The translations under genes were made by a program, and so were the position numbers. The notes beneath the pieces are model-generated. The model ran no database searches and had not been told where the DNA came from. It was given only the letters and a program-made list of their open reading frames with translations. A stretch of 64,000 bases of DNA from Escherichia coli (lineage in GTDB: Bacteria; Pseudomonadota; Gammaproteobacteria; Enterobacterales; Enterobacteriaceae): the NCBI RefSeq assembly GCF_009931435.1, contig NZ_CP043414.1; one strand, written 5' to 3'. Positions 31,932 through 58,801 of this stretch are shown piece after piece (the stretch's first letter is position 1; each line of letters opens with the position of its first letter).

Positions 31932-31935
31932 GAGG

Positions 31936-37056: not shown

Positions 37057-37082
37057 TGGCAATAAAAGATGACAAAGGCGGA

Positions 37083-38378: not shown

Positions 38379-38435
38379 GTAAGATACTCCAGTTAAGAAA
38401 TCATAAGCCCTGCTCTGCGTCCGATGAGCAAGGCG

Positions 38436-39125
38436 TTAAAAGCGGGTTGAAAAACGATATCCTGTACCGCGTACGGTCTGCACCATGCGGTCATGTCCGC
38501 CGGGCTCCAGTGCCTTACGCAGGCGACGAATGTGAACATCGACCGTGCGGTCTTCCACATATACGTTGGTTCCCCAGACGTGGTTTAACAGCTGCTCGCG
38601 GCTGTACACGCGCTCGGGATGCGTCATAAAAAAGTGCAGCAGTTTAAATTCTGTCGGCCCCATCTCCAGCGGTTCTTCGCCCGCCATCACCCGGTGAGAT
38701 GTCGGGTCGAGACTGAGCCCCTGCATCTCGATCACCTCTTCCACCGCCATTGGCGAAATACGGCGCATTACCGCTTTGATTCGCGCCACCAGTTCCTTCG
38801 GCGAAAACGGCTTGGTGATATAGTCATCCGCACCGGTTTCAAGGCCGCGCACGCGATCTTCTTCTTCCCCTCTGGCGGTCAGCATCACCACTGGAATATC
38901 TCGGGTCATCGATTCGCGCTTGAGGTGTTTGATGAACTGGATACCGGAGCCGCCAGGTAACATCCAGTCAAGGAGAATTAAATCCGGCCAGGGTTCATTC
39001 AGTTGATTCACAGCACTGTCATAATCTTCCGCTTCGACCGGCTGAAAGCCATTTTGTTCGAGCACGAAGCAGACCATTTCGCGAATTGGAGCTTCATCTT
39101 CTACGACCAGAATACGTCTCGCCAT
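38436..39125 (-). CDS. phoB: Phosphate regulon response regulator
   Basis: Track ORF, 229 aa; receiver domain plus winged-helix output domain. Confidence 0.96.
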
Positions 39126-39178
39126 GATTTGCCCTGTTGTAATAAATAGGTTGCGATCATTAATGCGACGTCATTATG

Positions 39179-39205
39179 CGTCAGATTTATGACAGATTTA
39201 TGAAA
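39179..39205 (-). promoter_or_regulatory. Pho box in the phoB promoter
   Basis: Minus strand reads CTTTTCATAAATCTGTCATAAATCTGAC, with a CATAAT -10 downstream of it. Confidence 0.85.
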
Positions 39206-39314
39206 AGCACGTCGCACATATCTTCAGGTAGTTGATTTCCGTGGCGCAGAAAAAAGCAAATGGCACATCTGTTTGGGTATAATCGCGCCCATGCTTTTTC
39301 GCCAGGGAATCGTT

Positions 39315-40517
39315 ATGCGCATCCTTCACACCTCAGACTGGCATCTCGGCCAGAACTTCTACAGTAAAAGCCGCGAAGCTGAACACCAGGCCTTTCTTGA
39401 CTGGCTGCTGGAAACAGCGCAAACCCATCAGGTGGATGCGATTATTGTTGCCGGTGATGTTTTCGATACCGGATCACCACCCAGTTACGCCCGCACGTTA
39501 TACAACCGTTTTGTTGTCAATTTACAGCAAACGGGCTGTCATCTGGTGGTACTGGCAGGAAACCATGACTCGGTCGCCACGCTGAATGAATCGCGCGATA
39601 TCATGGCGTTCCTCAATACTACCGTGGTCGCCAGCGCCGGACATGCGCCACAAATCTTGCCTCGTCGCGACGGGACGCCAGGCGCAGTGCTGTGCCCCAT
39701 TCCTTTTTTACGCCCGCGTGACATTATTACCAGCCAGGCGGGGCTTAACGGTATTGAAAAACAACAACATTTGCTGGCGGCTATTACCGATTATTACCAA
39801 CAACATTATGCCGATGCCTGCAAACTGCGCGGCGATCAGCCTCTGCCCATCATCGCCACGGGGCATTTAACGACCGTTGGTGCCAGCAAAAGTGACGCCG
39901 TGCGTGACATTTATATTGGCACGCTGGACGCCTTCCCGGCACAAAACTTTCCGCCAGTCGACTACATCGCGCTCGGGCATATTCACCGCGCACAGATTAT
40001 TGGCGGCATGGAACATGTTCGCTATTGCGGTTCCCCCATTCCACTGAGTTTTGATGAATGCGGAAAAAGTAAATATGTCCATCTGGTGACATTTTCAAAC
40101 GGCAAATTAGAGAGCGTGGAAAACCTGAGCGTGCCGATAACGCAACCAATGGCGGTACTGAAAGGCGATCTGGCGTCGATTACCGAACAGCTGGAACAGT
40201 GGCGCGATGTATCACAGGAACCACCTGTCTGGCTGGATATCGAAATCACTACTGATGAGTATCTGCATGATATTCAGCGCAAAATCCAGGCATTAACTGA
40301 ATCACTGCCTGTCGAAGTATTGCTGGTACGCCGCAGCCGTGAACAGCGCGAGCGTGTGTTAGCCAGCCAACAGCGTGAAACCCTCAGCGAACTCAGCGTC
40401 GAAGAGGTGTTTAATCGTCGTCTCGCACTGGAAGAACTGGATGAATCACAGCAGCAACGTCTGCAACATCTTTTCACCACGACGCTGCAGACCCTCGCCG
40501 GAGAACACGAAGCATGA
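39315..40517 (+). CDS. sbcD: Nuclease SbcCD subunit D (Mre11-like)
   Basis: Start moved to [13 protein letters not shown], giving 400 aa; metallophosphoesterase motifs. Confidence 0.93.
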
Positions 40518-43500
40518 AAATTCTCAGCCTGCGCCTGAAAAACCTGAACTCGTTAAAAGGCGAATGGAAGATTGATTTCACCCGCGAGCCGTTCGCCAGC
40601 AATGGGCTGTTTGCGATTACCGGCCCAACCGGCGCGGGGAAAACCACCCTGCTGGATGCCATTTGCCTGGCGCTGTATCACGAAACTCCGCGCCTTTCTA
40701 ACGTTTCACAATCGCAAAATGATCTAATGACCCGCGATACCGCCGAATGTCTGGCGGAAGTGGAGTTTGAAGTCAAAGGTGAAGCGTACCGTGCCTTCTG
40801 GAGCCAGAATCGGGCGCGTAACCAGCCAGACGGTAATTTGCAGGTGCCGCGCGTAGAGCTGGCGCGCTGTACCGATGGCAAAATTCTCGCTGACAAAGTG
40901 AAAGATAAGCTGGAACTGACGGCGACGTTAACCGGACTGGATTATGGGCGTTTCACCCGTTCGATGCTGCTTTCGCAGGGGCAATTTGCTGCCTTCCTGA
41001 ATGCCAAACCAAAAGAACGCGCGGAATTGCTCGAGGAATTAACCGGCACCGAAATCTACGGGCAAATCTCTGCGATGGTCTTTGAGCAGCACAAATCGGC
41101 CCGCACTGAGCTGGAGAAACTGCAAGCGCAGGCCAGCGGCGTTGCGTTATTAGCGCCAGAACAGCTGCAATCGCTGACAGAAAGTTTGCAGGTACTCACT
41201 GTCGAAGAGAAACAGTTACTCGCCGCGCAGCAGCAAGAACAACAATCGCTAAACTGGTTAACGCGTCTGGACGAATTGCAGCAAGAAGCCAGCCGACGTC
41301 AGCAGGCATTGCAACAGGCGTTAGCCGAAGAAGAAAAAGCGCAACCTCAACTGGCGGCGCTCAGCCTGGCACAACCGGCGCGAAATCTTCGTCCGCACTG
41401 GGAACGCATCGCAGAACACACTGCGGCACTGGCGCATACTCGCCAGCAGATTGAAGAAGTAAATACTCGCTTACAGCGCACAATGGCGCTTCGTGCGAGC
41501 ATTCGCCACCACGCGGCGAAGCAGTCTGCAGAATTACAGCAGCAGCAACAAAGCCTGAATGCCTGGTTACAGGAACACGACCGCTTCCGTCAGTGGAACA
41601 ACGAACTGGCGGGTTGGCGTGCGCAATTCTCTCAACAAACCAGCGAACGCGAGCATCTGCGGCAGTGGCAGCAACAGTTAACCCATGCAGAGCAAAAACT
41701 TAATTCACTTCCGGCGATCTCGTTGACGTTAAGCGCCGATGAAGTTGCTAGCGCCCAGGCGCAACATGCTGAGCAACGCACGCTGCGTCAGCGCCTGGTC
41801 GCGCTGCATGGACAGATTGTTCCCCAACAAAAACGCCTGGCGCAATTACAGATCGCTATCCAGAATGTCACGCAAGAACAGACGCAACGTAACGCCGCAC
41901 TTAACGAAATGCGCCAGCGTTATAAAGAAAAAACGCAACAACTTGCCGATGTGAAAACCATTTGCGAGCAGGAAGCTCGTATCAAAACGCTGGAAGTTCA
42001 ACGTGCGCAGTTACAGGCGGGTCAGCCTTGCCCACTTTGTGGTTCCACCAGCCACCCGGCGGTCGAGGCGTATCAGGCGCTGGAACCGGGCGTTAATCAG
42101 GCCCGGCTATTAACGCTGGAAAACGAAGTGAAAAAGCTCGGTGAAGAAGGTGCGCCGCTACGTGGGCAACTGGACGCCTTAACGAAGCAGCTTCAGCGTG
42201 ATGAAAACGAAGCGCAAAGCCTCCGACAAGATGAGCAAGCACTTACTCAACAATGGCAAGCTGTCACGGCCAGCCTCAATATCACCTTGCAGCCACAGGA
42301 CGATATTCAACCGTGGCTGGATGCACAAGATGAGCACGAGCGCCAGCTGCGGATACTCAGCCAACGGCATGAATTACAAGGGCAGATTGCTGCGCATAAT
42401 CAACAAATTATCCAGTATCAACAGCAAATTGAACAACGCCAGCAGCAACTCTCTGCGGCATTAGCGAGTTACGCGCTGGCATTGCCACAGGAAAATGAAG
42501 AAGAGAGCTGGTTAGCGACACGTCAGCAAGAAGCGCAGAGCTGGCAACTGCGTCAGAACGAATTAACTACGCTGCAAAACCGTATTCAGCAACTGACGCC
42601 GATTCTGGATACGTTACCGCAAGGTGATGAGTTATCGCACAGCGAAGAAACAGTGGCAATGGAAAACTGGCGGCAAATTCATGAACAATGTCTCGCGTTA
42701 CAAAGCCAGCAGCAGACGTTACAGCAACAGGATGTTCTGGCGGCGCAAAGTCTGCAAAAAGCCCAGGCGCAGTTTGACACCGCGCTACAGGCCAGTGTCT
42801 TTGACGATCAACAGGCGTTCCTTGCGGCGCTAATGGATGAACAAACACTAACCCAACTGGAACAGCTCAAGCAGAATCTGGAAAACCAGCGCCGTCAGGC
42901 GCAAACGCTGGTCACTCAGACAGCTGAAACGCTGGCACAGCATCAGCAACACCGACCTGACGGCCTGGATCTCAGTGTGACGGTGGAGCAGATTCAGCAA
43001 GAGTTAGCGCAAACTCACCAAAAGTTGCGTGAAAACACCACGAGTCAGGGCGAGATTCGTCAACAGCTGAAACAGGATGCGGAAAACCGTCAGCAACAAC
43101 AAACCTTAATGCAGCAAATTGCTCAAATGACGCAGCAGGTTGAGGACTGGGGATATCTTAATTCGCTAATAGGTTCCAAAGAGGGCGATAAATTCCGCAA
43201 GTTTGCCCAGGGGCTGACGCTGGATAATTTAGTCCATCTCGCTAATCAGCAACTTACCCGGTTACACGGGCGCTATCTGTTACAGCGCAAAGCCAGCGAG
43301 GCGCTGGAAGTCGAGGTTGTTGATACCTGGCAGGCAGATGCGGTACGCGATACCCGTACCCTTTCCGGTGGCGAGAGTTTCCTCGTCAGTCTGGCGCTGG
43401 CGCTGGCGCTTTCGGATCTGGTCAGCCATAAAACGCGTATTGACTCGCTGTTCCTTGATGAAGGTTTTGGCACGCTGGATAGCGAAACGCTGGATACCGC

Positions 43501-43657
43501 CCTTGATGCCCTGGATGCCCTGAACGCCAGCGGCAAAACCATCGGTGTGATTAGCCACGTTGAAGCGATGAAAGAGCGTATTCCGGTGCAGATCAAAGTG
43601 AAAAAGATCAACGGACTGGGATACAGCAAACTGGAAAGTGCGTTTGCAGTGAAATAA
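40514..43657 (+). CDS. sbcC: Nuclease SbcCD subunit C (Rad50-like SMC ATPase)
   Basis: Track ORF, 1047 aa; Walker [11 protein letters not shown]-rich coiled coil, CPLCG zinc hook, C-terminal signature LSGGE; 4-nt overlap with sbcD. Confidence 0.96.
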
Positions 43658-43782
43658 CTATTCAGCAGGATAATGAATACAGAGGGGCGAATTATCTCTT
43701 GGCCTCACTGGTCGTTATCCTGCAAGCTATCACTTTATTGGCTACGGTGATTGGTAGCCGTTCTGGTGGTTGTGATGGTGGT

Positions 43783-44967
43783 ATGAAAAAAGTTATTTTA
43801 TCTTTGGCTCTGGGCACGTTTGGTTTGGGAATGGCCGAATTTGGCATTATGGGCGTGCTTACGGAGCTGGCACATAACGTAGGTATTTCGATTCCTGCCG
43901 CCGGACATATGATCTCGTATTATGCGCTGGGGGTGGTGGTCGGTGCACCAATCATCGCACTCTTTTCCAGCCGCTACTCGCTCAAACATATCTTGTTGTT
44001 TCTGGTGGCGTTGTGCGTCATTGGCAACGCCATGTTCACGCTCTCTTCGTCTTACCTGATGCTCGCCATTGGTCGGCTGGTTTCCGGCTTTCCGCATGGC
44101 GCTTTTTTTGGCGTCGGGGCGATTGTGTTATCGAAAATTATCAAACCCGGCAAAGTCACCGCCGCCGTGGCGGGGATGGTTTCGGGGATGACAGTTGCCA
44201 ATTTGCTGGGCATTCCGCTGGGGACGTATTTAAGTCAGGAGTTTAGCTGGCGTTACACCTTTTTATTGATCTCTGTGTTTAATATCGCGGTGATGGCATC
44301 GGTCTATTTTTGGGTGCCGGATATTCGCGACGAGGCGAAAGGAAAGCTGCGCGAACAATTTCACTTTTTGCGCAGCCCGGCCCCGTGGTTAATTTTCGCT
44401 GCCACGATGTTTGGCAACGCGGGTGTATTTGCCTGGTTCAGCTACGTAAAGCCATACATGATGTTTATTTCCGGTTTTTCGGAAACGGCGATGACCTTTA
44501 TTATGATGTTAGTTGGGCTGGGGATGGTGTTGGGGAATGTGCTAAGTGGCCGGATTTCAGGACGTTATTCACCACTACGCATTGCGGCAGTGACTGATTT
44601 CATTATTGTGCTGGCATTGCTGATGCTCTTTTTCTTCGGCGGCATGAAAACAACGTCGCTTATTTTTGCTTTTATTTGTTGCGCGGGATTATTTGCCCTC
44701 TCTGCACCGCTGCAAATATTGTTACTGCAAAATGCCAAAGGTGGAGAATTATTAGGTGCCGCAGGTGGGCAAATAGCGTTTAACCTCGGTAGCGCCGTCG
44801 GCGCATATTGCGGAGGTATGATGCTGACGCTGGGGCTGACTTATAATTACGTGGCGCTGCCTGCCGCCCTGCTTTCGTTTGCTGCGATGTCGTCGTTGCT
44901 GCTGTATGGTCGCTATAAGCGCCAGCAAGCGGCGGATAGTCCGGTGCTGGCGAAACCAGTGGGGTAG
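43783..44967 (+). CDS. araJ: MFS transporter AraJ
   Basis: Start moved to MKKVILSLALGTFGLG, giving 394 aa. Confidence 0.9.
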   Translation: MKKVILSLALGTFGLGMAEFGIMGVLTELAHNVGISIPAAGHMISYYALGVVVGAPIIALFSSRYSLKHILLFLVALCVIGNAMFTLSSSYLMLAIGRLVSGFPHGAFFGVGAIVLSKIIKPGKVTAAVAGMVSGMTVANLLGIPLGTYLSQEFSWRYTFLLISVFNIAVMASVYFWVPDIRDEAKGKLREQFHFLRSPAPWLIFAATMFGNAGVFAWFSYVKPYMMFISGFSETAMTFIMMLVGLGMVLGNVLSGRISGRYSPLRIAAVTDFIIVLALLMLFFFGGMKTTSLIFAFICCAGLFALSAPLQILLLQNAKGGELLGAAGGQIAFNLGSAVGAYCGGMMLTLGLTYNYVALPAALLSFAAMSSLLLYGRYKRQQAADSPVLAKPVG

Positions 44968-44993
44968 ATTGCAGCCACGGTGCACGTTGCTTA

Positions 44994-45079
44994 TTGCCGG
45001 ATGCGGCGTGAACACCTTATCCGGCCTACGGCTGCTCATTTTGTAGGCCTGATAAGACGCGGCAAGCGTCGCATCAGGC
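44994..45079. repeat. Pair of REP elements (BIME-like) after araJ
   Basis: gccggatgcggcgtgaacaccttatccggcctac and gtaggcctgataagacgcggcaagcgtcgcatcaggc. Confidence 0.8.
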
Positions 45080-45104
45080 ATGATGCACCAATTGCCTGGT
45101 TTTT

Positions 45105-46013
45105 TTACTCTTGTGGCCATAACCACGCAGCGCCGCGTACGCCGCTGGAATCACCATGTTTCGCCTTACGCACCGGCGTTTCACATTCGCCGCCGAAGAC
45201 AAATTGTTTAATCAACTGCGGAACCGTTTGATATAAACGATCTACATTGCTCATCCCGCCCCCCAACACAATCACATCCGGATCGAGAATATTCACTACG
45301 TGTGCCAGCGATTTTGCCAGCCGCAGCTCGTAGCGACGCAATGCCAGTTCCGCTACCGGATCGCTTTCTTCTACCAAGCGGATAATTTCACTGCCTTTCA
45401 GCGCATGTCCGCTCAAACGATGATAATCCGTCGCGAATCCCGTGCCCGAAATAAAGGTTTCAATACAACCTTGTTTACCGCAATAACAAGGGACTTCCTC
45501 GCGATAACGCAGTTCATCTTCGTCCATCCACGGTAGCGGATTGTGTCCCCACTCGCCTGCCGTGCCATTGCCGCCGATATGCGCTCGACCATTGAACGCT
45601 ACGCCCGCGCCGCATCCCGTGCCGATAATCACGGCAAATACCGTCTGCGCTCCCGCTGCTGCGCCATCTACCGCTTCCGAGACCGCCAGACAGTTGGCGT
45701 CATTTGCCAACCGCACTTCCCGTTGCAACCGCGCGCTTAAATCTTTATCAAATGGCTGACCGTTAAGCCAGGTTGAATTGGCATTTTTCACCACGCCAGT
45801 GTAAGGCGAAATCGAGCCTGGAATGCCCATGCCTACCGTTCCGCGCTGCCCTGTCGCCTGCTCCGCCATATCAACCAACGTGGCGATCGTTTCGATGGTC
45901 TGATGGTAATCATCACGCGGTGTGGGCAGACGATGACGATACAACTGCTCCCCTGCATCGCCCAGTGCAATCACTTCAGTTTTAGTGCCGCCTAAATCGA
46001 TACCTATACGCAC
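45105..46013 (-). CDS. mak: Fructokinase / manno(fructo)kinase (ROK family)
   Basis: Start set at the in-frame GTG ([14 protein letters not shown]), giving 302 aa, which matches the recalled Mak length. Confidence 0.85.
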
Positions 46014-46137
46014 GGTACTCTCCTTATTTTTTTCAATATCAATAGCGTAGAGACGGACAACCGGATTGGCAATGCAAGGCCGCCGACAATTCGTTATCAT
46101 GCCCGCTAAATTTAACGACAAGGCCGTGGAAATTATC

Positions 46138-47049
46138 ATGCTGTGGTTCAAAAATTTAATGGTTTACCGTCTTAGCCGCGAGATTTCGCTGCGTGCAGAA
46201 GAGATGGAAAAACAGCTAGCCTCGATGGCATTTACCCCATGCGGCAGCCAGGACATGGCGAAGATGGGCTGGGTTCCTCCGATGGGATCGCACAGCGATG
46301 CGTTAACGCACGTTGCCAATGGTCAAATTGTTATCTGCGCGCGCAAAGAAGAAAAAATCCTCCCGTCTCCGGTGATTAAACAGGCGCTGGAAGCAAAAAT
46401 CGCCAAGCTGGAAGCGGAACAGGCGCGCAAGCTGAAGAAAACCGAAAAAGATTCGCTGAAAGATGAAGTGCTGCACTCTCTTCTGCCGCGCGCTTTCAGC
46501 CGTTTCAGCCAAACCATGATGTGGATCGATACGGTAAACGGTTTGATTATGGTGGACTGCGCCAGTGCCAAAAAAGCAGAAGATACGCTGGCATTACTGC
46601 GTAAAAGCCTGGGGTCGTTACCGGTTGTACCATTGAGCATGGAAAACCCGATTGAACTGACGCTGACCGAATGGGTACGCTCTGGTAGTGCGGCACAAGG
46701 CTTCCAGCTGCTTGATGAAGCCGAACTGAAATCGTTGCTGGAAGATGGCGGCGTGATCCGCGCGAAGAAACAAGATTTGACCAGCGAAGAAATCACCAAC
46801 CACATTGAAGCAGGAAAAGTGGTGACTAAACTGGCGCTCGACTGGCAGCAGCGCATTCAGTTTGTGATGTGCGACGATGGTTCACTCAAGCGTCTGAAGT
46901 TCTGCGACGAGCTGCGCGATCAAAACGAAGATATCGACCGTGAAGATTTTGCCCAACGTTTTGATGCCGATTTCATCCTGATGACCGGTGAACTGGCAGC
47001 ATTAATCCAAAACCTGATCGAAGGATTAGGTGGCGAAGCACAACGTTAA
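46138..47049 (+). CDS. rdgC: Recombination-associated protein RdgC
   Basis: Start moved to [12 protein letters not shown], giving 303 aa. Confidence 0.93.
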
Positions 47050-47068
47050 TTGCTGATTTGCCTTTAAT

Positions 47069-47106
47069 GCCGGATGCGACGCCTGCGGCGTCTTATCCGG
47101 CGTACG
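47069..47106. repeat. REP element after rdgC
   Basis: gccggatgcgacgcctgcggcgtcttatccggcgtacg. Confidence 0.75.
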
Positions 47107-47126
47107 AATCCACACCAGGCATATAA

Positions 47127-47582
47127 TCATTCGCTACGGCGGGCAATAATTTTTAGCGCAGCAATATTATGCGTTTTACGCCGTAACTGATCCAACCGTC
47201 TCATCCCTATTCGCCTGTCAGCGGCACGCAGAATATTCACTAACCCCCATTTATCGCTGGTACATTGTTTCGTTAACAGCTCCGCTTTTGGGGTATCAAT
47301 ATATTCACGCAATAAATCAGAAATTGAACAAATATCCGTCAGATAAGGATACCAGCAAGTTTCACCATGAAAATTACGCACTCCACCATTGCCTGCCATA
47401 AAGTCTTTTGGGTAATCCCAGATCACGTCTTTATCCAACGTGATCCAATAACGCGGTAAATCGGAGCTTCCACCATTTTGGCTGCGCATGGGATAACGGG
47501 TACAGTGAATTTGCAGGTTGATCGTTGGCGTCAGTAAGTCATAAATCTCCCTCTGTAACTTGCTCCAGGGGCGTTGTGTCAT
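47127..47582 (-). CDS. Hypothetical 151-aa protein, second gene of the accessory operon (no signal peptide)
   Basis: Track ORF; its ATG overlaps the stop of the upstream 762-aa ORF by 4 nt (ATGA); no motif recognised with certainty. Confidence 0.6.
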   Translation of the reverse strand: MTQRPWSKLQREIYDLLTPTINLQIHCTRYPMRSQNGGSSDLPRYWITLDKDVIWDYPKDFMAGNGGVRNFHGETCWYPYLTDICSISDLLREYIDTPKAELLTKQCTSDKWGLVNILRAADRRIGMRRLDQLRRKTHNIAALKIIARRSE

Positions 47583-49867
47583 TGTTTTTCCTCAAGCCGG
47601 TTACGCGCTTCACTGCGAATTTGCCGCGTTGCCCCGGTTTTCACTAAATGACGTAACTGCGAAAGATCGGGCTGATCAACAAATAAGATTAATGATGCAT
47701 CCTCCTTTAACCACGCCGTTTTCACATCGGCAGCCAACTGTGGATTATTAATAGCCAGCGCCCGATCCTGTGACTCAGTCAATGTCGTTAACAAAGAGGC
47801 TGGGGTATGTACATTGCGCAACGCCGTCTGCCGCAAATGATCATTGTGACTTTTCAGCAATCCGCACCACCATTCATCATCTGATTTATCTTTTATCGTA
47901 TCCAGCTCCGCAAAAATATCGCTTTCCTCATGATTCCAGCGGTGTAATCCCCTTTCACTTTGTCTACGGGTGCTATTTTTCATACTGACAACAGACAACG
48001 CCCAGTCGGAGTTAAAACGATACTGTTGATCGAGTTTGTTGATAATTCCGGAGGGTAAATCTTCATTATCAAATAGCTGGTTTCGCATCCGATAGCGGTA
48101 TTCAGCAGGTAAATAAACCAGTAAATCGATGGCATTATTAAACATCTCTTCGTCAATAATACCATTATCAATCAGCGCCAGCTGTACTTCGTAGGCTTGC
48201 TCTTGATCTTCTTGCCGTTTACTCATCATTAATTTTAAGGTGTGTTGCCATAATTGTTTCTTATACTCCAGAGGTAATAATTTATCGCGTGCCAGCTCAT
48301 ACCAGATGCTGGGAATGTCATGCTGATTCAGTAGATAACTAATCACTTCCTTCGAGGTCAGATAACGCATGCCGTCACGTAAGTTGTGCACATCTTCTTT
48401 TGCCAAAGTCAGTTGACGCGACTCCGGCAAAGCGACCAATAACGCCTTCACGATATTTTTATTTTCTTTATTATCCAGATACATTTGTTCTGCGATACGT
48501 TCAACATCCTCTGTCCTCAGGGTCGCTGACAGTTGGGTGATTTTTAGTTCAGTAAGCGTCCGGGCTAATGCTTGACGAACTTTCAGCGATTTATCTTTAC
48601 TCAACAACACCGCTTGTTGTGCGGTTAAATCGGTTCCGGTAATTCTTTCGCGTAACTCCGGAGCTTCGCTATTTATCAATTCATCGACCACTGCAGTTGG
48701 AACCAGCCAGGCGTAATCGTAATGGCTGATTAATGTCTTGCGCACACTGAGAAAAGGGCTTTGACTTAACGACACAACAATATCAGGAGAAAGATTATCC
48801 TGTCTGGCCTGCTCCAGCTGTACGCTCTCGACGGGTACAGACATTAATTTTTTATTCACTTCGGCGGATATATTGCTGTTTTTAACCAGTCCTCTGGCAA
48901 CAGCTTCATCTTTAATTATTTCGTCGGTAAGCAAATGCATCTGTTGAGCGGGCCAGGACTGCGCCATCGATTCACGCGTCTGGTCATCGGGGTGCTGTAA
49001 CAGTTGCAGCATAACGGCGGTTGACAAACGCTCTATATGAGTCAGAAAACGTGCCACCAGTGGATCTTCATGCTTTATTTTATCCGCAAGGAAATTATCG
49101 AGTTTCCCCGTTTCAATCCATTTTAATTTCTCATTAATTTCAGGAGCAGCTTTATCTCGAAAAAGAGGTAAACCCTGAACGATATTGTCTACGACGCTAT
49201 CATAGTCAGGATACGCATTGGAAATATTATCGGTTTCGATTTCACTATGATCATAAAGATTAGGCGTCACCAGTGAATAAACTTTTTGAATATTCTCGTC
49301 CCAGTTATATTCTTCACCGCTTTCATCTTCATTGATATAAAACTCAGCTTTAATGACCTCAAATTGCGTTGCTTTATCGGAAACAATAATGCCTCGCGCG
49401 CTAATTCCTTTCATCACTTCAAAGTTGTGATCATTATAATCAGCATAAACCAAACCTTTCGCTGTCATCTGCCCTTTGACATACGCGAAATCATGATTAA
49501 TAAAGTTGTCGACAATAACATTACCTAATACAATCAGATGACCATTACCTGACAGATAATCATCATAATCGCCGGAAATCGTTAAATTACCGTTCACCAC
49601 CAATTTATTTTGATTGCTGAAGTTAGCGGGTAATGATAGGTCACCATTATGATAATACCAACGGATATTATCTTTCAGCATATAAGCAGCTTCCATACTA
49701 TCGTTGGTTGCCGCTTTAACCACGTTGCGCTCATCTGCCGTCATAAGATGAAAGTCAGAGGTGATAAGGTCCTCGCTACTGATCCACTCTGTGGCACATG
49801 CATTGCCAGTCATAAAAAACACGACCATACAGATGACCAATATATTAATTCTATTCATAATCTTCAC
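47579..49867 (-). CDS. Hypothetical 762-aa secreted protein (signal peptide; Gly/Asn-rich N-terminal region; helical-repeat C-terminal region)
   Basis: Track ORF; N-terminus MKIMNRINILVICMVVFFMTGNACA is a Sec-type signal; no catalytic motif recognised. Confidence 0.65.
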   Translation of the reverse strand: MKIMNRINILVICMVVFFMTGNACATEWISSEDLITSDFHLMTADERNVVKAATNDSMEAAYMLKDNIRWYYHNGDLSLPANFSNQNKLVVNGNLTISGDYDDYLSGNGHLIVLGNVIVDNFINHDFAYVKGQMTAKGLVYADYNDHNFEVMKGISARGIIVSDKATQFEVIKAEFYINEDESGEEYNWDENIQKVYSLVTPNLYDHSEIETDNISNAYPDYDSVVDNIVQGLPLFRDKAAPEINEKLKWIETGKLDNFLADKIKHEDPLVARFLTHIERLSTAVMLQLLQHPDDQTRESMAQSWPAQQMHLLTDEIIKDEAVARGLVKNSNISAEVNKKLMSVPVESVQLEQARQDNLSPDIVVSLSQSPFLSVRKTLISHYDYAWLVPTAVVDELINSEAPELRERITGTDLTAQQAVLLSKDKSLKVRQALARTLTELKITQLSATLRTEDVERIAEQMYLDNKENKNIVKALLVALPESRQLTLAKEDVHNLRDGMRYLTSKEVISYLLNQHDIPSIWYELARDKLLPLEYKKQLWQHTLKLMMSKRQEDQEQAYEVQLALIDNGIIDEEMFNNAIDLLVYLPAEYRYRMRNQLFDNEDLPSGIINKLDQQYRFNSDWALSVVSMKNSTRRQSERGLHRWNHEESDIFAELDTIKDKSDDEWWCGLLKSHNDHLRQTALRNVHTPASLLTTLTESQDRALAINNPQLAADVKTAWLKEDASLILFVDQPDLSQLRHLVKTGATRQIRSEARNRLEEKQ

Positions 49868-49965
49868 TGATATTTATATCAACCTTGATGAATTATGAAT
49901 ATATCGGAAATCGAAAAAATCGCAGCAAAGGAAATATTATTATGGGTTAAAGAGAAGATATTTCA

Positions 49966-49995
49966 GAAAAATGCCCTCCCGTTCATGGGGAAGGC
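49966..49995 (-). terminator. Probable terminator of ppnP
   Basis: Minus-strand hairpin (gccttcccc-atgaac-gggagggc) followed by attttt. Confidence 0.5.
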
Positions 49996-50001
49996 GAGGA
50001 A

Positions 50002-50286
50002 TTACAGATAGCGGCACAGATAAGAGGTGGGTTCGGCAACTTGCAGATGAAACTCGCTGTGACCGGGAACATTAAACACCGAACCGGCTTCATACACTTG
50101 CCAGTCGGTCGCGTCAGGCAGTAACACATTCAGCGCACCACTGATTACCGTCATCTCTTCAGGCTCAGCGGTGCTGAAGGTGTATTCGCCTTCAACCATA
50201 ACACCCACGCTGGCGCGACCAGTGCTGCTGCTGGAAAAGCCGATCGATTTCACTTTGCCGGAAAAGTACTCATTACTTTGAAGCAT
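50002..50286 (-). CDS. ppnP: Pyrimidine/purine nucleoside phosphorylase PpnP (YaiE)
   Basis: Track ORF, 94 aa. Confidence 0.92.
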
Positions 50287-50357
50287 AAACTGGCCCTGTC
50301 TGGTAGTTGAACATCTACTTCACTATAGGGGCCAGAGGCGCTGGCTGTCACGCAAAA

Positions 50358-51035
50358 TTACACCAGTAATTCCGCAGCTAGCCTTGCAATCAATACGTTA
50401 GAGAGCAAGACAGGAACATCGAGCTGTTTTTGCAGTAAATCGCGATGACGCTGGTTAAATCCCAAACAATCCAGCATGATGACATCTGCGCCTTTTGCCA
50501 GTAATTCTTTCCCGGCATCAATGATTTTTTGTTCCGAATCATGAATGGGGTTACCCAATGAAAATACTGGCGGTTTCTGCAAAATTTGCCATTTTTGCGC
50601 CTGAACGGTCAGTAGCTCTTCAACCGGTACGATAACCCCCACCTGATGATCTTCAACAATAGATGAAACCAGCGGTGGCAATATTCGCGACGGCTCAAGA
50701 AAGATCGTATTACGCGCGGTCATACTCCTAATGTTTGCCGTACTCATTAATATAATGACGTCGTAACCCTGATTATCGAGCACTTCAACCACACCTTGCA
50801 GGTCTCGCTCCACTTTGCGACGCGAAACATGGGCCAGCTGGTTGTCATTTAATAATGTGAGAATTGTGTCTTCGCCTGCTTCTGGCGCGTACTCCGCCAT
50901 CACTTCTTCGCGGCTTAACTTCCCCAGCAGGCTATGATGGGAAATATTATCTTCGTCAATGTATTCTGTCAGGAGCGGCAAAACTTCCTGCATAGGTACA
51001 ATGCCGATGGTCAGGATCGCCAACGACGCACTCAT
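50358..51035 (-). CDS. aroM: Protein AroM
   Basis: Track ORF, 225 aa. Confidence 0.9.
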
Positions 51036-51292
51036 TGTTCTTCCACCTTACTTTTATTTCGTCGTTAATTACCGGGCAAGCGCTAAGCACCACTGCCGAC
51101 ACTTACCTGTGCTACAAATGACAAAAAGCGTAGCAGCAGACCTGCACGGCATAATGTAAAGATTCCAAATGATTCCAGTAATGGATTGTTATTGTTTAAT
51201 ATTCTAATTATTTGAAAAACATGAATTGTGAAAAATGTGACGCAGATCCCTTGTGGTGGCACTCAGAATCCCTTCCGAGCAGTCTGATGCGG

Positions 51293-51493
<201 letters not shown>

Positions 51494-51533
51494 TTATTTC
51501 ACGGGATGAACGTTAAGTATAGGCGCTCGAAAA

Positions 51534-52058
51534 TCAACAATTGCTCGTCTGTGCCAGGGCGCTGCGAATTTCAGAAATCACCTGGCTGGGTTCGTTTGTT
51601 GCGTCGATGATAATATGCGCAACTTCGCGATATAGCGCATCGCGTTCTTCCAGCACTTCCTGAACTTCTTCGCTCAGCGGTTTCCCCGTTAAGGTTGGCC
51701 GTAAATCTTCTTCCGGTGCAGCTTGCAGTCGGTTAACCAGGACTGATACTGGCGCACACAAATAAACCACGATCCCGTTATTTTGCATAAAGTGACGATT
51801 AAATTCCGTCAGGATAATGCCGCCGCCCGTGGCGATAACGGTGGATGGCGCAGTTACCGCTTCCAACGCCGCCGTTTCTCTGGCGCGGAATCCCGCCCAC
51901 TCTTCCCTTTCGACGATCTCCGCGACCGTCATATTGAGCTGTGATTGCAACCACTGGTCGGTATCGACAAATCGACGGTTAAGCGAATCGGCAAGGGCCA
52001 TTCCGACCGTTGTTTTACCACAGCCCCGAGGCCCGATCAGAAAAAGAGGTTGTGTCAT
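51534..52058 (-). CDS. aroL: Shikimate kinase II
   Basis: Track ORF, 174 aa; Walker [10 protein letters not shown]. Confidence 0.95.
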
Positions 52059-52124
52059 CGTGGGTTTTCCCCAATAGGTCGCAATGCGGCGAAAGCCGGT
52101 GTCATGAGAATAGCGATCATACCA

Positions 52125-52137
52125 TCAAACTAGTACA
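52125..52137 (-). promoter_or_regulatory. Possible TrpR operator half-site upstream of aroL
   Basis: AACTAGTAC core read in the sequence; aroL is a known TrpR/TyrR target (established knowledge). Confidence 0.3.
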
Positions 52138-52222
52138 ATTTCGATTGTAAAGAAAAAATTCCACTTAAAGTGAAAATTTTAATACATCCCTTACTATACC
52201 AATAAATTTTCAAGAATGAAGT

Positions 52223-52240
52223 GTAAATAATAAATTACAT
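52223..52240 (-). promoter_or_regulatory. TyrR box upstream of aroL
   Basis: TGTAAATAATAAATTACA fits the TGTAAA-N6-TTTACA consensus. Confidence 0.6.
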
Positions 52241-52699
52241 TCAGCCACGACTACGTTGCACTTCCAGCCACCACTTCTCCAGCTCCGCGGCAAAGGCCTG
52301 GCGGTCACGTTGTGAAAGGCTATCTGGTCCCCCGGTCTGGATCCCACTGGCGCGTAAGGTATCCATAAAATCGCGCATCGTCAGGCGCTCACGAATGGTC
52401 GCTGGTGTGTAACGTTCGCCGCGTGGATTAAGCGCCGCAGCGCCTTTCTCGATGACTTCAGCAGCCAAAGGAATATCTGCGGTGATCACCAAATCGCCAG
52501 CTTCACACTGCCGGACAATTTCGTTATCGGCAACGTCGAAACCTGCCGCGACGCGCAGCGTTCGAATAAATCGCGAAGGCGGTACGCGTAAACTCTGGTT
52601 TGCTACCAGTACCAGCGGCATCTGCATACGTTCAGCCGCGCGATACAAAATCTCTTTAATTACATTGGGACACGCGTCGGCATCCACCCAAATTGTCAT
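52241..52699 (-). CDS. yaiI: UPF0178 protein YaiI
   Basis: Start moved to [13 protein letters not shown], giving 152 aa. Confidence 0.88.
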
Positions 52700-52818
52700 A
52701 AAGTCATCCTTTGTTGGGTAATTCTCTATTGTGTCGCGCTTTTGCCTTCCGGCATAGTTCTGTTTATGCTTCTGCCAGCGATTATCAAAACAATGAATTT
52801 CACGGCAGGAGTGAGGCA

Positions 52819-53628
52819 ATGGAAAAGAAAATCGGTTTTATTGGCTGCGGCAATATGGGAAAAGCCATTCTCGGCGGTCTGATTGCCAGCGGTCAGGTGC
52901 TTCCAGGGCAAATCTGGGTATATACCCCCTCCCCGGATAAAGTCGCCGCCCTGCATGACCAGTTCGGCATCAACGCCGCAGAATCGGCGCAAGAAGTGGC
53001 GCAAATCGCCGACATCATTTTCGCCGCCGTTAAACCAGGCATCATGATTAAAGTGCTTAGCGAAATCACCTCCAGCCTGAATAAAGACTCTCTGGTCGTT
53101 TCTATTGCTGCGGGTGTCACGCTCGACCAGCTTGCCCGCGCGCTGGGCCATGACCGGAAAATTATCCGCGCCATGCCGAACACTCCCGCACTGGTTAATG
53201 CCGGGATGACCTCCGTAACGCCAAACGCGCTGGTAACCCCAGAAGATACCGCTGATGTGCTGAATATTTTCCGCTGCTTTGGCGAAGCGGAAGTAATTGC
53301 CGAGCCGATGATCCACCCGGTGGTCGGTGTGAGCGGTTCTTCGCCAGCCTACGTCTTTATGTTTATCGAGGCGATGGCCGACGCCGCCGTGCTGGGCGGG
53401 ATGCCACGCGCCCAGGCGTATAAATTTGCCGCTCAGGCGGTAATGGGTTCCGCAAAAATGGTGCTGGAAACGGGAGAACATCCGGGGGCACTGAAAGATA
53501 TGGTCTGCTCACCGGGAGGCACCACCATTGAGGCGGTACGCGTACTGGAAGAGAAAGGCTTCCGTGCCGCAGTGATCGAAGCGATGACGAAGTGTATGGA
53601 AAAATCAGAAAAACTCAGCAAATCCTGA
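52819..53628 (+). CDS. proC: Pyrroline-5-carboxylate reductase
   Basis: Start moved to [14 protein letters not shown] (Rossmann motif), giving 269 aa. Confidence 0.94.
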
Positions 53629-53644
53629 TGACTTTCGCCGGACG

Positions 53645-54760
53645 TCAGGCCGCCACTTCGGTGCGGTTACGTCCGGCTTTCTTTGCTTTGTAGAGCGCCA
53701 AATCTGCCGATTTCAACCACTCCCGATAGTGACTCATTTGTGGATTCAGCGGCGCGACACCCACACTAATCCGTAACATCACCTGCGGTGTATTCGGCAA
53801 ACGTAACGTATTTAGCCCTTCATGTACCCGTAACATGGCGGTAATGGCGCTCTCAGCTGGCGTACCGGACATGATCACCGCAAACTCATCGCCACCAAAC
53901 CGACCAATCACATCGCTACCGCGCAGGGTAATTTGTAATTGTCGGGTAAGCGCCACAATCGCTTCATCGCCCACATCATGGCCCCAGGTATCGTTGATGC
54001 TCTTGAAATGGTCGATATCGATAATCAGTAACGTCGCATCGCGGTTATGCCGCCGACAGTTATCAAATTCATTGCGTAACATAGTTTCCCAATGACGTCG
54101 GTTATACACGCCCGTCATACCGTCGCGGGTACTCATGACCTGCAATCGGCGTTTATGTTCCGCCAGTTTAGTCGCCGTCTGGTAGCTGACCCAACCAAAC
54201 AGCAGAGGATAAATGACGATAATGGGAAGGGAGAGCCACCATTCCAGCGGCGCACTATTGAACGACACGGTGATACCCGTCAGTTCGAGGGTGACAAGGC
54301 AGGAAACCACCATCAACACCAGACCCGCGACAAACAGACGGGGGCCGCCTGCCCCCATCAAATTCAGACACATAATCATCAACATCGCGGTGGAAGGCAG
54401 CACGTTTACGCCCATTACGCCTACCCACATTCCCGCTAATACTGCATCGGTTTTTAAGTTATAAATTTCCCGGCTAAGCGGATCGACAGCCCTACTCGCA
54501 ATCTGCCAGGCTAAATGCGGCCAGACGAACGCCCAGCCGACCAACACCAGCCACCACCAGCCCGGCGGCGGGTGCGAAACCAGCGTTGAAGCAATCGGTA
54601 AGAACATGCCAGCCAGGCCAACCGCGCGGGGTAGTCTGACGCGACGGGCGAAGCGCAGCCCGGACCGCTGATGTTCGTTTTGAGGAGTTAAAGGAGGTTC
54701 CTCCCCATGCGCCGCCGCTTTTTTGAAAAAGTTTTCATCATTCATTATTTTTGGGAACAT
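53645..54760 (-). CDS. dgcC: Diguanylate cyclase (AdrA/DgcC)
   Basis: Track ORF, 371 aa; N-terminal membrane (MASE2-like) region and GGDEF motif RFGGDEF. Confidence 0.93.
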   Translation of the reverse strand: MFPKIMNDENFFKKAAAHGEEPPLTPQNEHQRSGLRFARRVRLPRAVGLAGMFLPIASTLVSHPPPGWWWLVLVGWAFVWPHLAWQIASRAVDPLSREIYNLKTDAVLAGMWVGVMGVNVLPSTAMLMIMCLNLMGAGGPRLFVAGLVLMVVSCLVTLELTGITVSFNSAPLEWWLSLPIIVIYPLLFGWVSYQTATKLAEHKRRLQVMSTRDGMTGVYNRRHWETMLRNEFDNCRRHNRDATLLIIDIDHFKSINDTWGHDVGDEAIVALTRQLQITLRGSDVIGRFGGDEFAVIMSGTPAESAITAMLRVHEGLNTLRLPNTPQVMLRISVGVAPLNPQMSHYREWLKSADLALYKAKKAGRNRTEVAA

Positions 54761-54861
54761 TCAGAAACAATTTTCCCAAATTATAGAGACGGGGCTAAAG
54801 GCAGAAGTATGAAATTTCGGGTGAGCCATTTTCGTAGCTCACCCGTTAGCACTATCAGGTA

Positions 54862-55182
54862 TCAGGCGGCTTTCTTGAGGCAGGCGCTCATAAACTTATT
54901 ACGATCATCACCTTTCAGAGATTGTTGCGTTGCTTGATTATTACATTCGCGCATCTTTTGCTGCTGTGGCGTCAAACTTTTTTCACCAGGCGCAGACTTG
55001 CTGTTCTTCAGGCAATCACTCATGTAGGTCTTACGAGCATCCCCTTTCAACGCCTGCGCCGTCGCCTGCTGATTACAGGAGGTCATACGCTGTTGTTGCG
55101 GGGTTAAGGTTCTCTCGGCAGCGCCGACGGTGGTTAAAAAAACCAGTCCGAAAAGCAAGGTAACCAGTAATGTTATTTTCAT
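54862..55182 (-). CDS. psiF: Phosphate-starvation-inducible protein PsiF
   Basis: Start moved to MKITLLVTLLFGLVFL (signal peptide), giving 106 aa; internal duplicated motif. Confidence 0.9.
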   Translation of the reverse strand: MKITLLVTLLFGLVFLTTVGAAERTLTPQQQRMTSCNQQATAQALKGDARKTYMSDCLKNSKSAPGEKSLTPQQQKMRECNNQATQQSLKGDDRNKFMSACLKKAA

Positions 55183-55300
55183 AGCACCATCCCTCTTCAT
55201 GTTTTAACCATGAGCGTTTGCGCCCGTGATCTGCCATTAAGTCTGGTTGCTAACCGCAAAAAAACCACCCGGCAGCGAAATTTCACCGCCGGGCGAGGTT

Positions 55301-56716
55301 TTATTTCAGCCCCAGGGCGGCTTTCATGGTGTAGAAGAGATCGGTCTGGTCGGTCAGTCCAACGACATTGGCGGCATGTGGGCCATACGCCGCAATACGC
55401 AGCTGACTACCGGTATGTTCTTGTGAATCCTCTTCGGAGTTCCCGTAACTCATCACCATCACTGCGCCATCTTTGGTATTTAGCGCCTGGGTGAGGCCCG
55501 GCGCTTTGGTGTCCGGCGCGACAATCTGGCTGGCGTGGGCGTGATCAGCGGTGACTATGACCAGCGTGTTGCCATCCTTTTTAGCGAATTCCAGCGCCCG
55601 TTGTACGGCTTCGTCGAGATCGACCGTCTCGCCAATTTGCCCACAAGGATTCGCCGCGTGATCCTGTTTATCGATTGATGCACCTTCAACTTGCAGGAAA
55701 AAGCCTTTCTCATTTTTACTCAACAATTCAATGGCTTTATCAGTCATCTGCGCCAGGGTCGGTACGCTGTCATTACGTTGCGGATTAGGCGTACAGGTAA
55801 CTGCGGGCTTGTCGATATTGCCGTGGTACGTTGCTTTCGGTCCTTGCCAGCGCACTGGCATATTGCCGTCAGCAAACAGTCCTAGCAGGGGTTTTTGCTG
55901 GTTCGCTTCCGTCACCGCATTCAGTGAGGCAGCATCGCTCACCAACTGATAACCACGCGCCTGCGCCTGTTCACGCAGCGTTTTTCCCTGCCATTCACCG
56001 GCGGTTGCCGTTTCCGCAAAGGTTTTTGCGCCGCCGCCAAGCGTAACATCGGCACGGGCGTTAAGCAGCTGTTCGGTAATCGATCCTTTTCCGCCTTTTT
56101 CCAGCGCGTTACGCGGACATTTTTCACTGGTCGCGCTCGGACCGTAGCATTTGCGCGAAGTCACATGCGCCACCAACGCGGCGGGAGTGGCATCCTGCAA
56201 CTCTGCGGTAGAAACGTTACCGGTCGCCAGCCCTGCGGCTTTTGCCATTTCCAGAATCGTTGGGTGATCTTTTTCATGAATATCGACACCCAATGCGCCG
56301 TTATAGGTTTTGACACCGGTTGACCAGGCAGTTGCTGATGCAGCCGAGTCGGTAACGTAGTCCGGTTTGCCGGTTTTTTTATTCAGCGCATAGTGAGTGT
56401 ATTGCCCGGTAAGCGGTAAGGCATCAATACCTTTAAAAAAGCCGCCCGCACCTTCGGCATAATTACGTGCGGCAGTAATTTCCGAATCCCCCATCCCATC
56501 GCCAATCAGCAAAATAATATTTTTTGCAGGCTTATCGCTAAGAGAATCACGCAGAGCGGCGCTCTGATCACCCGTTAAGCGGCGAGCACCGCCGGGTGCA
56601 GTAATATCGCCCTGAGCAGCCCGGTTTTCCAGAATAGGCATTTCTGGTGTCCGGGCTTTTGTCACAGGGGTAAACAGTAACGGTAAGAGTGCCAGTGCAA
56701 TAGTGCTTTGTTTCAC
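55301..56716 (-). CDS. phoA: Alkaline phosphatase
   Basis: Start set at the GTG ([21 protein letters not shown]), giving 471 aa; active-site region DSAASATAW. Confidence 0.95.
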
Positions 56717-56776
56717 TTTATTTTCTCCATGTACAAATACATTAAAAAATAAAAACAAAGCGACTATAAGTCTCAG

Positions 56777-56796
56777 CCGTGACAGCTTTATGACAG
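56777..56796 (-). promoter_or_regulatory. Pho box in the phoA promoter
   Basis: Minus strand reads CTGTCATAAAGCTGTCACGG, followed by TATAGT. Confidence 0.85.
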
Positions 56797-56816
56797 CTGT
56801 TGAAAAGATTACCTTT

Positions 56817-57077
56817 TTACTGACGAGGATGCTTCAATAACTTCTTTACATAATCGCGCAGCAGCTCCGTATCGTCGTCAGGAATGCTGGCATCGGGCTT
56901 TACCTCGTAAAGTGCCCCCTCAACCTGATCAATCAACCGCTGTTGGTCATTTTGCGCCATATTACGAAGCATTGCAGTGACGATAATCTCCAGTGCTTCT
57001 ACCTGCGCGCACAGTTCTTTCGACTCTTCTTCTTTTTGGGCAAGCTTAAATAACAACTCAGCAATGAGATTTTTCAT
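56817..57077 (-). CDS. iraP: Anti-adapter protein IraP
   Basis: Track ORF, 86 aa. Confidence 0.92.
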
Positions 57078-57539
57078 GTCTGTATTTCCTTATCCAAAGT
57101 ATGGAGAAGTTAACATTATGCTTCACAACTTCATAGTGTCTGGAGGTAGTATTTTTATGACGAATGAAATACTTTGCGCAAATATTTTTTCCATATTTAT
57201 CAGCGAAACGTTTCTCTTATTTAAATAAGTAACCATACAAAGTATAGGTTTTTAATTATCAACCTTTATTATAAGTAAAAGTTATGAAATATATTCTCTT
57301 TGCTAACTTATAATTAAGAGAAAAAAACTCACTGCATGGCCATTTAAACCAGGAATAAATTAGCTTCCCGTTCATCATTTTTGTGATCTTGCGCACATCT
57401 TTGAGATAACGCACTTTCTTCACCAGTACGTTGCACACTTTGTCAGTAGAAGATTGCAACATTCTGTCAGAAGGCCGCGAATCCCCCGTTTTGTCGTGGT
57501 AATGTATGCACTTTGTGTTAGACGGGATAGGTTTTCAAG

Positions 57540-58634
57540 ATGGAAAAACTGCGGGTAGGAATCGTTTTTGGTGGTAAATCAGCGGAACATGAAGTGTCTT
57601 TGCAATCGGCAAAAAACATTGTCGATGCCATTGATAAAAGTCGCTTCGACGTTGTGCTGCTGGGCATTGATAAACAAGGGCAATGGCACGTCAGCGATGC
57701 CAACAATTATCTGCTAAATGCAGACGATCCTGCCCATATTGCGTTGCGCCCTTCGGCGACCAGTCTTGCGCAGGTGCCTGGTAAACATGAGCATCAGCTT
57801 ATCGACGCACAAAACGGTCAGCCATTGCCGACGGTGGATGTCATTTTCCCGATTGTTCACGGTACGCTAGGCGAAGATGGTTCCTTGCAGGGAATGCTGC
57901 GGGTCGCCAATTTACCGTTTGTGGGTTCTGATGTTTTGGCGTCAGCGGCCTGTATGGATAAAGATGTCACCAAACGTCTGCTACGCGATGCCGGGCTGAA
58001 CATTGCGCCATTTATTACCCTGACACGCACCAATCGTCAAAACATCAGTTTTGCCGAAGTGAAGTCAAAACTGGGGTTACCGCTGTTTGTAAAACCCGCT
58101 AACCAAGGCTCTTCTGTTGGTGTCAGCAAAGTAACCAGTGAAGAAGAGTACGCAATTGCCGTCGATCTGGCGTTCGAGTTCGATCATAAAGTGATCGTTG
58201 AGCAAGGGATCAAAGGTCGTGAGATCGAATGCGCGGTTCTGGGCAACGACAATCCGCAAGCCAGTACCTGTGGCGAGATCGTACTAACCAGCGATTTCTA
58301 TGCCTACGACACCAAGTACATTGACGAAGATGGCGCGAAAGTGGTGGTTCCGGCAGCCATTACGCCTGAAATTAACGATAAGATCCGGGCAATTGCCGTT
58401 CAGGCTTATCAAACGTTGGGTTGCGCAGGCATGGCGCGTGTAGACGTGTTTTTAACCCCAGAGAACGAAGTGGTAATCAACGAGATCAACACACTGCCAG
58501 GCTTCACCAACATCAGTATGTATCCGAAGCTGTGGCAAGCCAGCGGTTTGGGTTACACCGACCTGATCACACGTCTGATCGAGTTGGCGCTGGAGCGTCA
58601 CGCTGCGGATAACGCATTGAAAACCACAATGTAA
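57540..58634 (+). CDS. ddlA: D-alanine--D-alanine ligase A
   Basis: Track ORF, 364 aa. Confidence 0.95.
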
Positions 58635-58640
58635 TTTTTA

Positions 58641-58670
58641 AATGCCCAATAACTGTTATTGGGCATTTAA
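58641..58670 (+). terminator. Hairpin after the ddlA stop
   Basis: atgcccaataa-c-tgttattgggcat palindrome followed by ttaa. Confidence 0.5.
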
Positions 58671-58682
58671 GACTGTAAGATT

Positions 58683-58771: not shown

Positions 58772-58801
58772 AAAACAACGAGCACTTTGTCAGCCCCCAG
58801 A

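Follow-up and report, generated by a model that had tools for sequence, protein, structure and literature searches.

The window, the whole 64,000-nucleotide stretch of DNA analysed here, is a segment of the E. coli chromosome inverted in orientation relative to K-12, and it carries two pho loci whose promoters and genes all lie on the minus strand (Table 1), a location on which the sequence-only reading had made no statement. The interval 39179-56796 singled out in that reading consists of two small promoters ~17.5 kb apart (span 17.6 kb) with mostly unrelated genes between them; both quoted promoter strings are present, while the start is off by one, the phoB string beginning at 39180. The four genes phoB, phoR, phoA and psiF are so annotated in 5,400+ E. 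coli genomes, and the DUF2773/SF0329 pair located between the promoters gave no match with PADLOC. The cognate PhoB/PhoR two-component system is itself encoded in the window (37083..39125), its PhoB protein being identical to that of K-12 (229/229 residues, 100%).

Table 1. Coordinates of the phoBR and phoA-psiF features in the window
Feature	Coordinates	Strand	Remarks
Terminator-like hairpin after phoR	37034..37057	-	10 pairs + T-run, directly after the phoR stop
phoR CDS, 431 aa	37083..38378	-	starts with GTG; second in the phoBR operon
phoB CDS, 229 aa	38436..39125	-	annotated phoB in relatives
PhoB site inside phoB, ATTCACAGCACTGTCATA	39006..39023	+	antisense orientation; 18/18 to the ChIP-seq site at K-12 417245
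phoB -10 hexamer CATAAT	39173..39178	-	5/6; 10 bp past the box
Degenerate third 7-bp repeat CTGACGC at phoB	39178..39184	-	11-bp register; 4/7 to CTGTCAT
phoB Pho box, 18 bp, TTTTCAT and CTGTCAT separated by AAAT (TTTTCATAAATCTGTCAT)	39189..39206	-	18/18 identical to the K-12 site in the literature; PWM rank 1
Genes between the promoters: sbcDC, araJ, mak, rdgC, DUF2773/SF0329 pair, ppnP, aroM, yaiA, aroL, yaiI, proC, adrA			
psiF CDS, 106 aa	54862..55182	-	two Pfam PsiF_repeat stretches, E 8.7e-34; annotated psiF in relatives
Intrinsic terminator hairpin + T7 run, phoA-psiF gap	55265..55296	-	14 pairs, 9 G-C
phoA CDS, 471 aa	55301..56716	-	GTG start at 56716; SD GGAG 56728..56725, 9 nt upstream
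phoA -10 hexamer TATAGT	56763..56768	-	5/6; 10 nt past the 18-bp box, 8 nt past the quoted string
phoA SNP vs K-12, C->T	56775	-	footprint position 22 (GGCC -> GGCT)
phoA SNP vs K-12, T->C	56785	-	first base of second repeat (TTGTCAC -> CTGTCAC)
phoA PhoB site, 22 bp	56775..56796	-	Pho box CTGTCAT, AAAG, CTGTCAC (56796..56779) + 4-bp minor-groove extension GGCT

At the phoB promoter the quoted string (CTTTTCATAAATCTGTCATAAATCTGAC) is exact and unique, being present a single time in the window, on the minus strand at 39180..39207, without a mismatch and against 0 occurrences expected by chance. The two repeats of the 18-bp box match CTGTCAT at 5/7 and 7/7 positions. The best -35 candidate at a spacing of 16-18 bp reaches only 2/6, and a sigma-70 consensus scan of the same strand returns no promoter; with the box placed 10 bp before the -10 hexamer, the Pho box does stand in place of a -35, as had been proposed. 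Starting 2 nt before the quoted string and up to and including the ATG, the sequence is identical to the K-12 phoBR promoter, and the divergent neighbour sbcD and the 189-bp intergenic length are likewise shared, whereas the only differences are three SNPs farther upstream toward sbcD. An additional PhoB site inside phoB, identical in K-12, scores 16.1 bits with our position weight matrix (PWM; rank 3); intragenic PhoB sites of this class are reported to be transcriptionally inert.

The phoA promoter is organized in the same way. Its quoted string (CTGTCATAAAGCTGTCACGG) is also found once (56777..56796, minus strand) and is followed by TATAGT as originally described; the repeats match CTGTCAT at 7/7 and 6/7 positions, the best -35 at 16-18 bp spacing is again only 2/6, and no sigma-70 consensus promoter is found on the same strand. 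The GTG start of phoA is the one that RefSeq annotates for K-12 and for the closest genomes. Relative to K-12 phoAp the -10 hexamer, the 10-bp gap, the 5' UTR, the SD and the GTG start are all the same, as are the flanking genes (iraP upstream, psiF downstream), and downstream of the iraP stop region 169 of the 171 promoter bases in the alignment agree. The two bases that differ are position 12 of the box (T->C) and position 22 of the PhoB footprint (C->T); both lie within that footprint, which has been defined as 22 bp long (PMC4447250).

Both sites thus contain two 7-bp CTGTCAT-like repeats with a 4-bp A/T-rich spacer and an 11-bp period, and they share one geometry: an 18-bp box, exactly 10 bp, a 5/6 -10 hexamer and a -35 of at most 2/6. 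When ~128,000 positions were scored with a PWM derived from 56 independent PhoB ChIP-seq sites of the literature, the phoB box (21.1 bits) and the phoA box (20.9 bits) ranked first and second, above every shuffle (shuffle maxima: mean 14.8, largest 20.6 bits). A consensus search allowing up to 3 mismatches yielded 3 matches vs 0.24 expected, located at these loci only. Beyond these two and the site inside phoB, no additional Pho boxes were detected in the window by the PWM, the next matches (e.g. 59145..59128) scoring at most 14.7 bits; these were set aside since they are reachable by shuffles and coincide with no K-12 ChIP-seq peak. The pstS promoter, absent from the window, has the same repeat unit and 11-bp period and belongs to the same activator-dependent class without a -35; it carries two adjacent Pho boxes, the regulon's strongest consensus sites, and with this PWM its core box (TGTCATAAAACTGTCATA) reaches 23.4 bits, as against the 21.1 and 20.9 bits found here. 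The published K-12 boxes are CTGTCATAAAGTTGTCAC for phoA and TTTTCATAAATCTGTCAT for phoB (PMC3465305), and K-12 PhoB ChIP-seq peaks have been mapped at phoA, at sbcD/phoB and inside phoB (PMC10294691).

A mismatch to the documented Pho box sequences had been put forward in the sequence-only reading as grounds for refuting it. The phoB box is exact; the phoA site is formally mismatched at two bases, the box itself (CTGTCATAAAGCTGTCAC) being 17/18 identical to the K-12 site characterised by ChIP-seq and EMSA. We do not regard this mismatch as a refutation, because the T->C change occurs as a natural allele, leaves both TGTCA cores intact and moves toward consensus. Among 5,426 complete E. coli genomes the C allele of the second repeat is carried by 616 (11%) and the T allele by 4,743 (87%), whereas the exact 71-nt allele combining both changes is rare (16/5,426). 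The C and T counts were obtained with 30-mers in which each 28-nt seed spans the SNP; a prior megablast survey with the 71-nt sequence, the source of the count of 16, had returned 616 genomes instead of ~5,400, a shortfall attributed to the T-rich 5' UTR being masked as low-complexity, which would prevent seeding. At the T->C position C is the commonest base in the independent sites (27/56) and adds 1.06 bits. Both substitutions shift the site toward consensus, and for this reason we take them to be polymorphism. That the phoA mismatch might reflect a misread base or a non-functional site was considered and rejected, as the base is present in the window, 616 genomes share the allele and it outscores the K-12 allele.

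The most likely effect of the phoA substitutions is nil to a slight rise in PhoB~P affinity. A measurable rise, such that alkaline phosphatase would be induced sooner or at a lower threshold than in K-12, is possible, if on balance unlikely. Both changes fall inside the footprint, the T->C change produces the most frequent base with its gain in score, and the C->T change puts an A/T pair in place of a G/C pair in the minor-groove extension, which is otherwise all G/C; Gao and Stock hold this extension responsible for the low affinity of phoA and found ~5-fold higher affinity upon G/C to A/T changes (PMC4447250). However, the TGTCA cores are unaltered, just one of the five G/C positions mutated by Gao and Stock differs here, and their phoA variants all reached equal maximal output at wild-type PhoB levels.

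The description of the phoB promoter as a tandem Pho box stands in that one canonical 18-bp box is present, although the third repeat does not make a second good box. CTGACGC lies in exact 11-bp register with the canonical repeats, occupying the 10-bp gap and reaching into the -10 hexamer, and two PhoB sites upstream of phoB are on record in the literature (PMC10294691), both of which would fit a promoter with two overlapping functional boxes, i.e. at least three occupied repeats. That arrangement is nevertheless improbable: the third repeat lacks the TGTCA core, a box in its register scores 12.2 bits vs 21.1 for the canonical box, a value reachable by shuffled sequence, and it shares the first base of the -10, so that PhoB bound there would be expected to clash with sigma region 2.

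Downstream of phoA, psiF follows on the same strand after a gap of 118 nt. The intrinsic terminator in this gap, which is conserved in K-12, has a folding energy of -27.8 kcal/mol (z = -4.5); it was absent from the sequence-only reading. The phoA-psiF operon proposed there agrees with the gene order, with the name in the literature and with PhoB dependence in K-12, where all genes of phoA-psiF and phoBR are expressed PhoB-dependently (PMC10294691), but a strong terminator separates the two genes, and therefore co-transcription can occur solely by read-through. The term operon is valid only if such read-through takes place, which is implied by the PhoB dependence of psiF in K-12 RNA-seq despite the terminator. 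Termination of the phoA transcript at this hairpin, with psiF transcribed from an unrecognised promoter of its own in the gap, would account for the strong conserved terminator but is improbable, as the gap holds no TGTCA core, no Pho-box-like site and, on this strand and by a consensus scan crude enough for a weak psiF promoter to escape, no sigma-70 promoter, while psiF is PhoB-dependent by K-12 RNA-seq and is named there as phoA-psiF (PMC10294691).

We therefore favour reading the phoBR and phoA(-psiF) promoters as canonical PhoB-dependent sigma-70 promoters, to which we assign a probability of about 0.96; the reading is made from sequence, with binding and regulation supplied by the K-12 literature. 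The present analysis establishes the sequences, the geometry, the identity or near-identity to K-12, the statistical distinctness of the boxes and the identity of the PhoB protein, whereas PhoB~P binding and Pi- and phoB-dependent transcription were demonstrated for the K-12 orthologues (PMC10294691, PMC4447250). The gene identities, the Pho boxes, the missing -35, the GTG start and the phoA-psiF order all agree with K-12 and with published PhoB sites, and no sequence feature contradicts a canonical PhoB-dependent promoter. By analogy with K-12, limitation for Pi would lead PhoR to phosphorylate PhoB, and a PhoB~P dimer would bind head-to-tail to each Pho box, on its two 11-bp repeats. The box, which ends 10 bp before the -10, would then stand in for the missing -35, and PhoB would recruit RNA polymerase through contact with sigma-70 region 4; the PhoB-sigma-70 contact has been described (PMC4415409, PMC4447250), and a Pho box at the -35 position suffices for Pi control (PMC8601176). 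The box at phoB would thereby confer positive autoregulation on phoBR, and the box at phoA would drive alkaline phosphatase, with psiF probably expressed by read-through of the terminator.

Both sites are already well known as control sites for phosphate starvation and are ordinary, with the exception of the natural two-base variant at phoA. Their main value is as the internal control foreseen in the sequence-only reading, which marks the window as a segment of the E. coli chromosome and confirms the calls of strand and coordinates. The sole new information is descriptive, namely that the sequence of the phoA Pho box varies among E. coli genomes. The rare double variant could slightly tune PhoB affinity; it is doubtful, though conceivable, that this allele is a natural higher-affinity Pho box, comparable to the engineered phoA*Hi variants, which would cause alkaline phosphatase to appear sooner in the temporal order of the Pho regulon.

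The two strings that the sequence-only reading had taken for Pho boxes are exact, CTTTTCATAAATCTGTCATAAATCTGAC at phoB (39207..39180) and CTGTCATAAAGCTGTCACGG at phoA (56796..56777), each occurring once in the window on the minus strand with 0 occurrences expected in shuffles, while the start coordinate assigned to the claim (39179) is wrong by one base. The 17.6-kb span claimed for the feature is simply the distance from the phoB promoter to the phoA promoter, and unrelated genes lie between them (sbcD, sbcC, araJ, mak, rdgC, a DUF2773/SF0329 pair, ppnP, aroM, yaiA, aroL, yaiI, proC and adrA).

Elements of the phoB and phoA promoters
Feature	Sequence	Position	Strand	Remark
phoB Pho box	TTTTCAT-AAAT-CTGTCAT	39206..39189	minus	18 bp
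phoB -10	CATAAT	39178..39173	minus	10-bp gap after box
phoB start	ATG	39125	minus	
phoA Pho box	CTGTCAT-AAAG-CTGTCAC	56796..56779	minus	
phoA -10	TATAGT	56768..56763	minus	10-bp gap after box
phoA GGAG	GGAG	56728..56725	minus	
phoA start	GTG	56716	minus	

The TATAGT and GTG start proposed for phoA are both present (Table), and each of the two -10 hexamers matches TATAAT at 5/6 positions. At 16-18 bp spacing no -35 better than 2/6 to TTGACA is found at either promoter, and a sigma-70 consensus scan of the minus strand at both loci returned no promoter; the Pho box is therefore correctly described as standing in place of a -35. The phoB site had been called a tandem Pho box, of which one 18-bp box stands and the second probably does not: the third repeat (CTGACGC, the tail of the quoted string) is in the 11-bp register, yet matches at only 4/7 positions and extends into the -10. 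On its sequence the promoter would be better described as one Pho box with a degenerate repeat rather than two boxes. The 189 bp separating sbcD from phoB contain the phoB box, whose directional geometry is in keeping with the lack of PhoB regulation of sbcD in K-12 (PMC10294691).

Matches to the consensus CTGTCATAWAWCTGTCAY with up to 3 mismatches are confined to the phoB and phoA loci (3 overlapping matches, 0.24 expected). A position weight matrix built on 56 PhoB ChIP-seq sites (Fitzgerald et al. 2023, PMC10294691), the three sites belonging to the window's region being left out of the training set, places the phoB box (21.1 bits) at the top of ~128,000 positions, followed by the phoA box (20.9 bits); across 200 shuffles the maximum averaged 14.8 bits and never exceeded 20.6. 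The third-ranked site, ATTCACAGCACTGTCATA (16.1 bits, 39006..39023, plus strand), was missed by the earlier reading; it lies within phoB, antisense to the gene, and is identical at 18/18 positions to a published K-12 intragenic ChIP-seq site. Intragenic PhoB sites of this class are reported to show no association with regulation and to be transcriptionally inert (Fitzgerald et al. 2023, PMC10294691).

Comparison with the published K-12 boxes for phoB (TTTTCATAAATCTGTCAT) and phoA (CTGTCATAAAGTTGTCAC) (PMC3465305; PMC8601176; PMC10294691) separates the two sites. From a little before the box through the start codon, the phoB promoter and its K-12 counterpart do not differ at any base, and the PhoB protein is likewise identical (229/229 residues), whereas the phoA site has two base changes. 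T->C at 56785 gives a second repeat of CTGTCAC where K-12 has TTGTCAC, and C->T at 56775 affects position 22 of the PhoB footprint, which Gao and Stock defined as 22 bp (PMC4447250). Surveyed across 5,426 genomes with 30-mers that place the SNP inside every possible seed, the K-12 T allele at 56785 is carried by 4,743 genomes and C by 616 (C was confirmed in 5/5 sequences sampled from its class); the exact 71-nt window allele with both changes occurs in 16 of the 5,426. Gao and Stock attribute the low PhoB affinity of phoA to the all-G/C minor-groove extension of its site (PMC4447250). Because C is the most frequent base at the position equivalent to 56785 (27/56 independent PhoB sites) and raises the matrix score by 1.06 bits, while C->T leaves one G/C pair fewer in the minor-groove extension, both substitutions shift the site toward consensus. 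The mismatch to the documented Pho box that the sequence-only reading named as its refutation is thus present at phoA in the letter but not in substance, and does not refute it.

Just upstream of the phoA box, the iraP stop codon is only 20 nt away (56797..56819, minus), and iraP is followed by only one terminator-like structure, a weak hairpin of 6 pairs that overlaps the phoA -10 (56761..56779, minus), in which C->T at 56775 turns a C.A mismatch into a T-A pair. In E. coli 14EC007 (positions ~156 onward in that strain) an IS1 element sits a few bases past the phoA -10 and splits the Pho-box promoter from phoA.

Downstream, psiF (106 aa, two PsiF repeats) starts 118 nt past the phoA stop codon. 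The proposed phoA-psiF operon is consistent with the gene order and with the gap itself, in which neither a consensus promoter nor a TGTCA core turned up, but is qualified by a strong intrinsic terminator between the genes (55296..55265; 14-bp stem, 9 G-C pairs, T7 run; -27.8 kcal/mol, z = -4.5) that is conserved in the K-12 gap. PhoB positively regulates all genes of 'phoA-psiF' in K-12 (PMC10294691). psiF is best read as expressed through partial read-through at the phoA terminator; a promoter of its own, against which the crude consensus search argues, is a minor alternative.

The window follows the gene order of K-12 minutes 8.6-9, inverted, and the phoA region is matched in 5,425/5,426 complete E. 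coli genomes (annotations iraP, phoA, psiF, adrA). Identity is 95.4-96.8% to K-12 (window 36000..64000) and 99.5% over 20 kb to the best of the 5,426 complete genomes. The source is therefore an E. coli lineage of some divergence, absent from that collection. Strains 2013C-4282 and WL297 match the 2.4-kb phoA segment at 100% but reach only 98.7% across the wider 20 kb, a mosaic pattern that suggests recombination. Of two overlapping genes at 47127..49867 (minus), one encodes a 762-aa protein whose sole Pfam match, DUF2773, covers the final 81 residues; the product of the other is a 151-aa member of the SF0329 family. PADLOC found no defence-system match for the pair, and K-12 retains only remnants (ykiA pseudogene, ykiD), lacking equivalents of 47921..49859 and 47195..47552. 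Overlapping ORFs at 7318..8155 (plus), flanked by cyoE and a Sel1-repeat protein (8211..9146, minus), encode a TacA-like antitoxin (PF08681) and a GNAT acetyltransferase, a putative type II toxin-antitoxin-like pair; the closest complete genome (strain R32_14_1F) has a different gene there. That strain also carries two genes missing from the window, one for a pentapeptide-repeat protein (between yajO and pgpA; window ~19064..19129) and one for a 481-aa hypothetical protein (between acpH and malZ; window ~31925..31936); both places resemble sites of variable insertion.

Sequence, geometry, conservation, statistics and an identical PhoB alongside PhoR are established in the window. By analogy with established K-12 work, PhoR would phosphorylate PhoB under Pi limitation, and PhoB~P would bind head-to-tail on the two 11-bp repeats. 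Its contact with sigma-70 would recruit RNA polymerase to promoters without a -35 (PMC4447250, PMC4415409). Putting a Pho box at the -35 position suffices to bring a constitutive promoter under Pi control (PMC8601176). The sequence-only account reads these already known textbook features correctly; all that is added to it is that the phoA Pho box is naturally polymorphic, that a terminator lies inside phoA-psiF and that the intragenic PhoB site is conserved.
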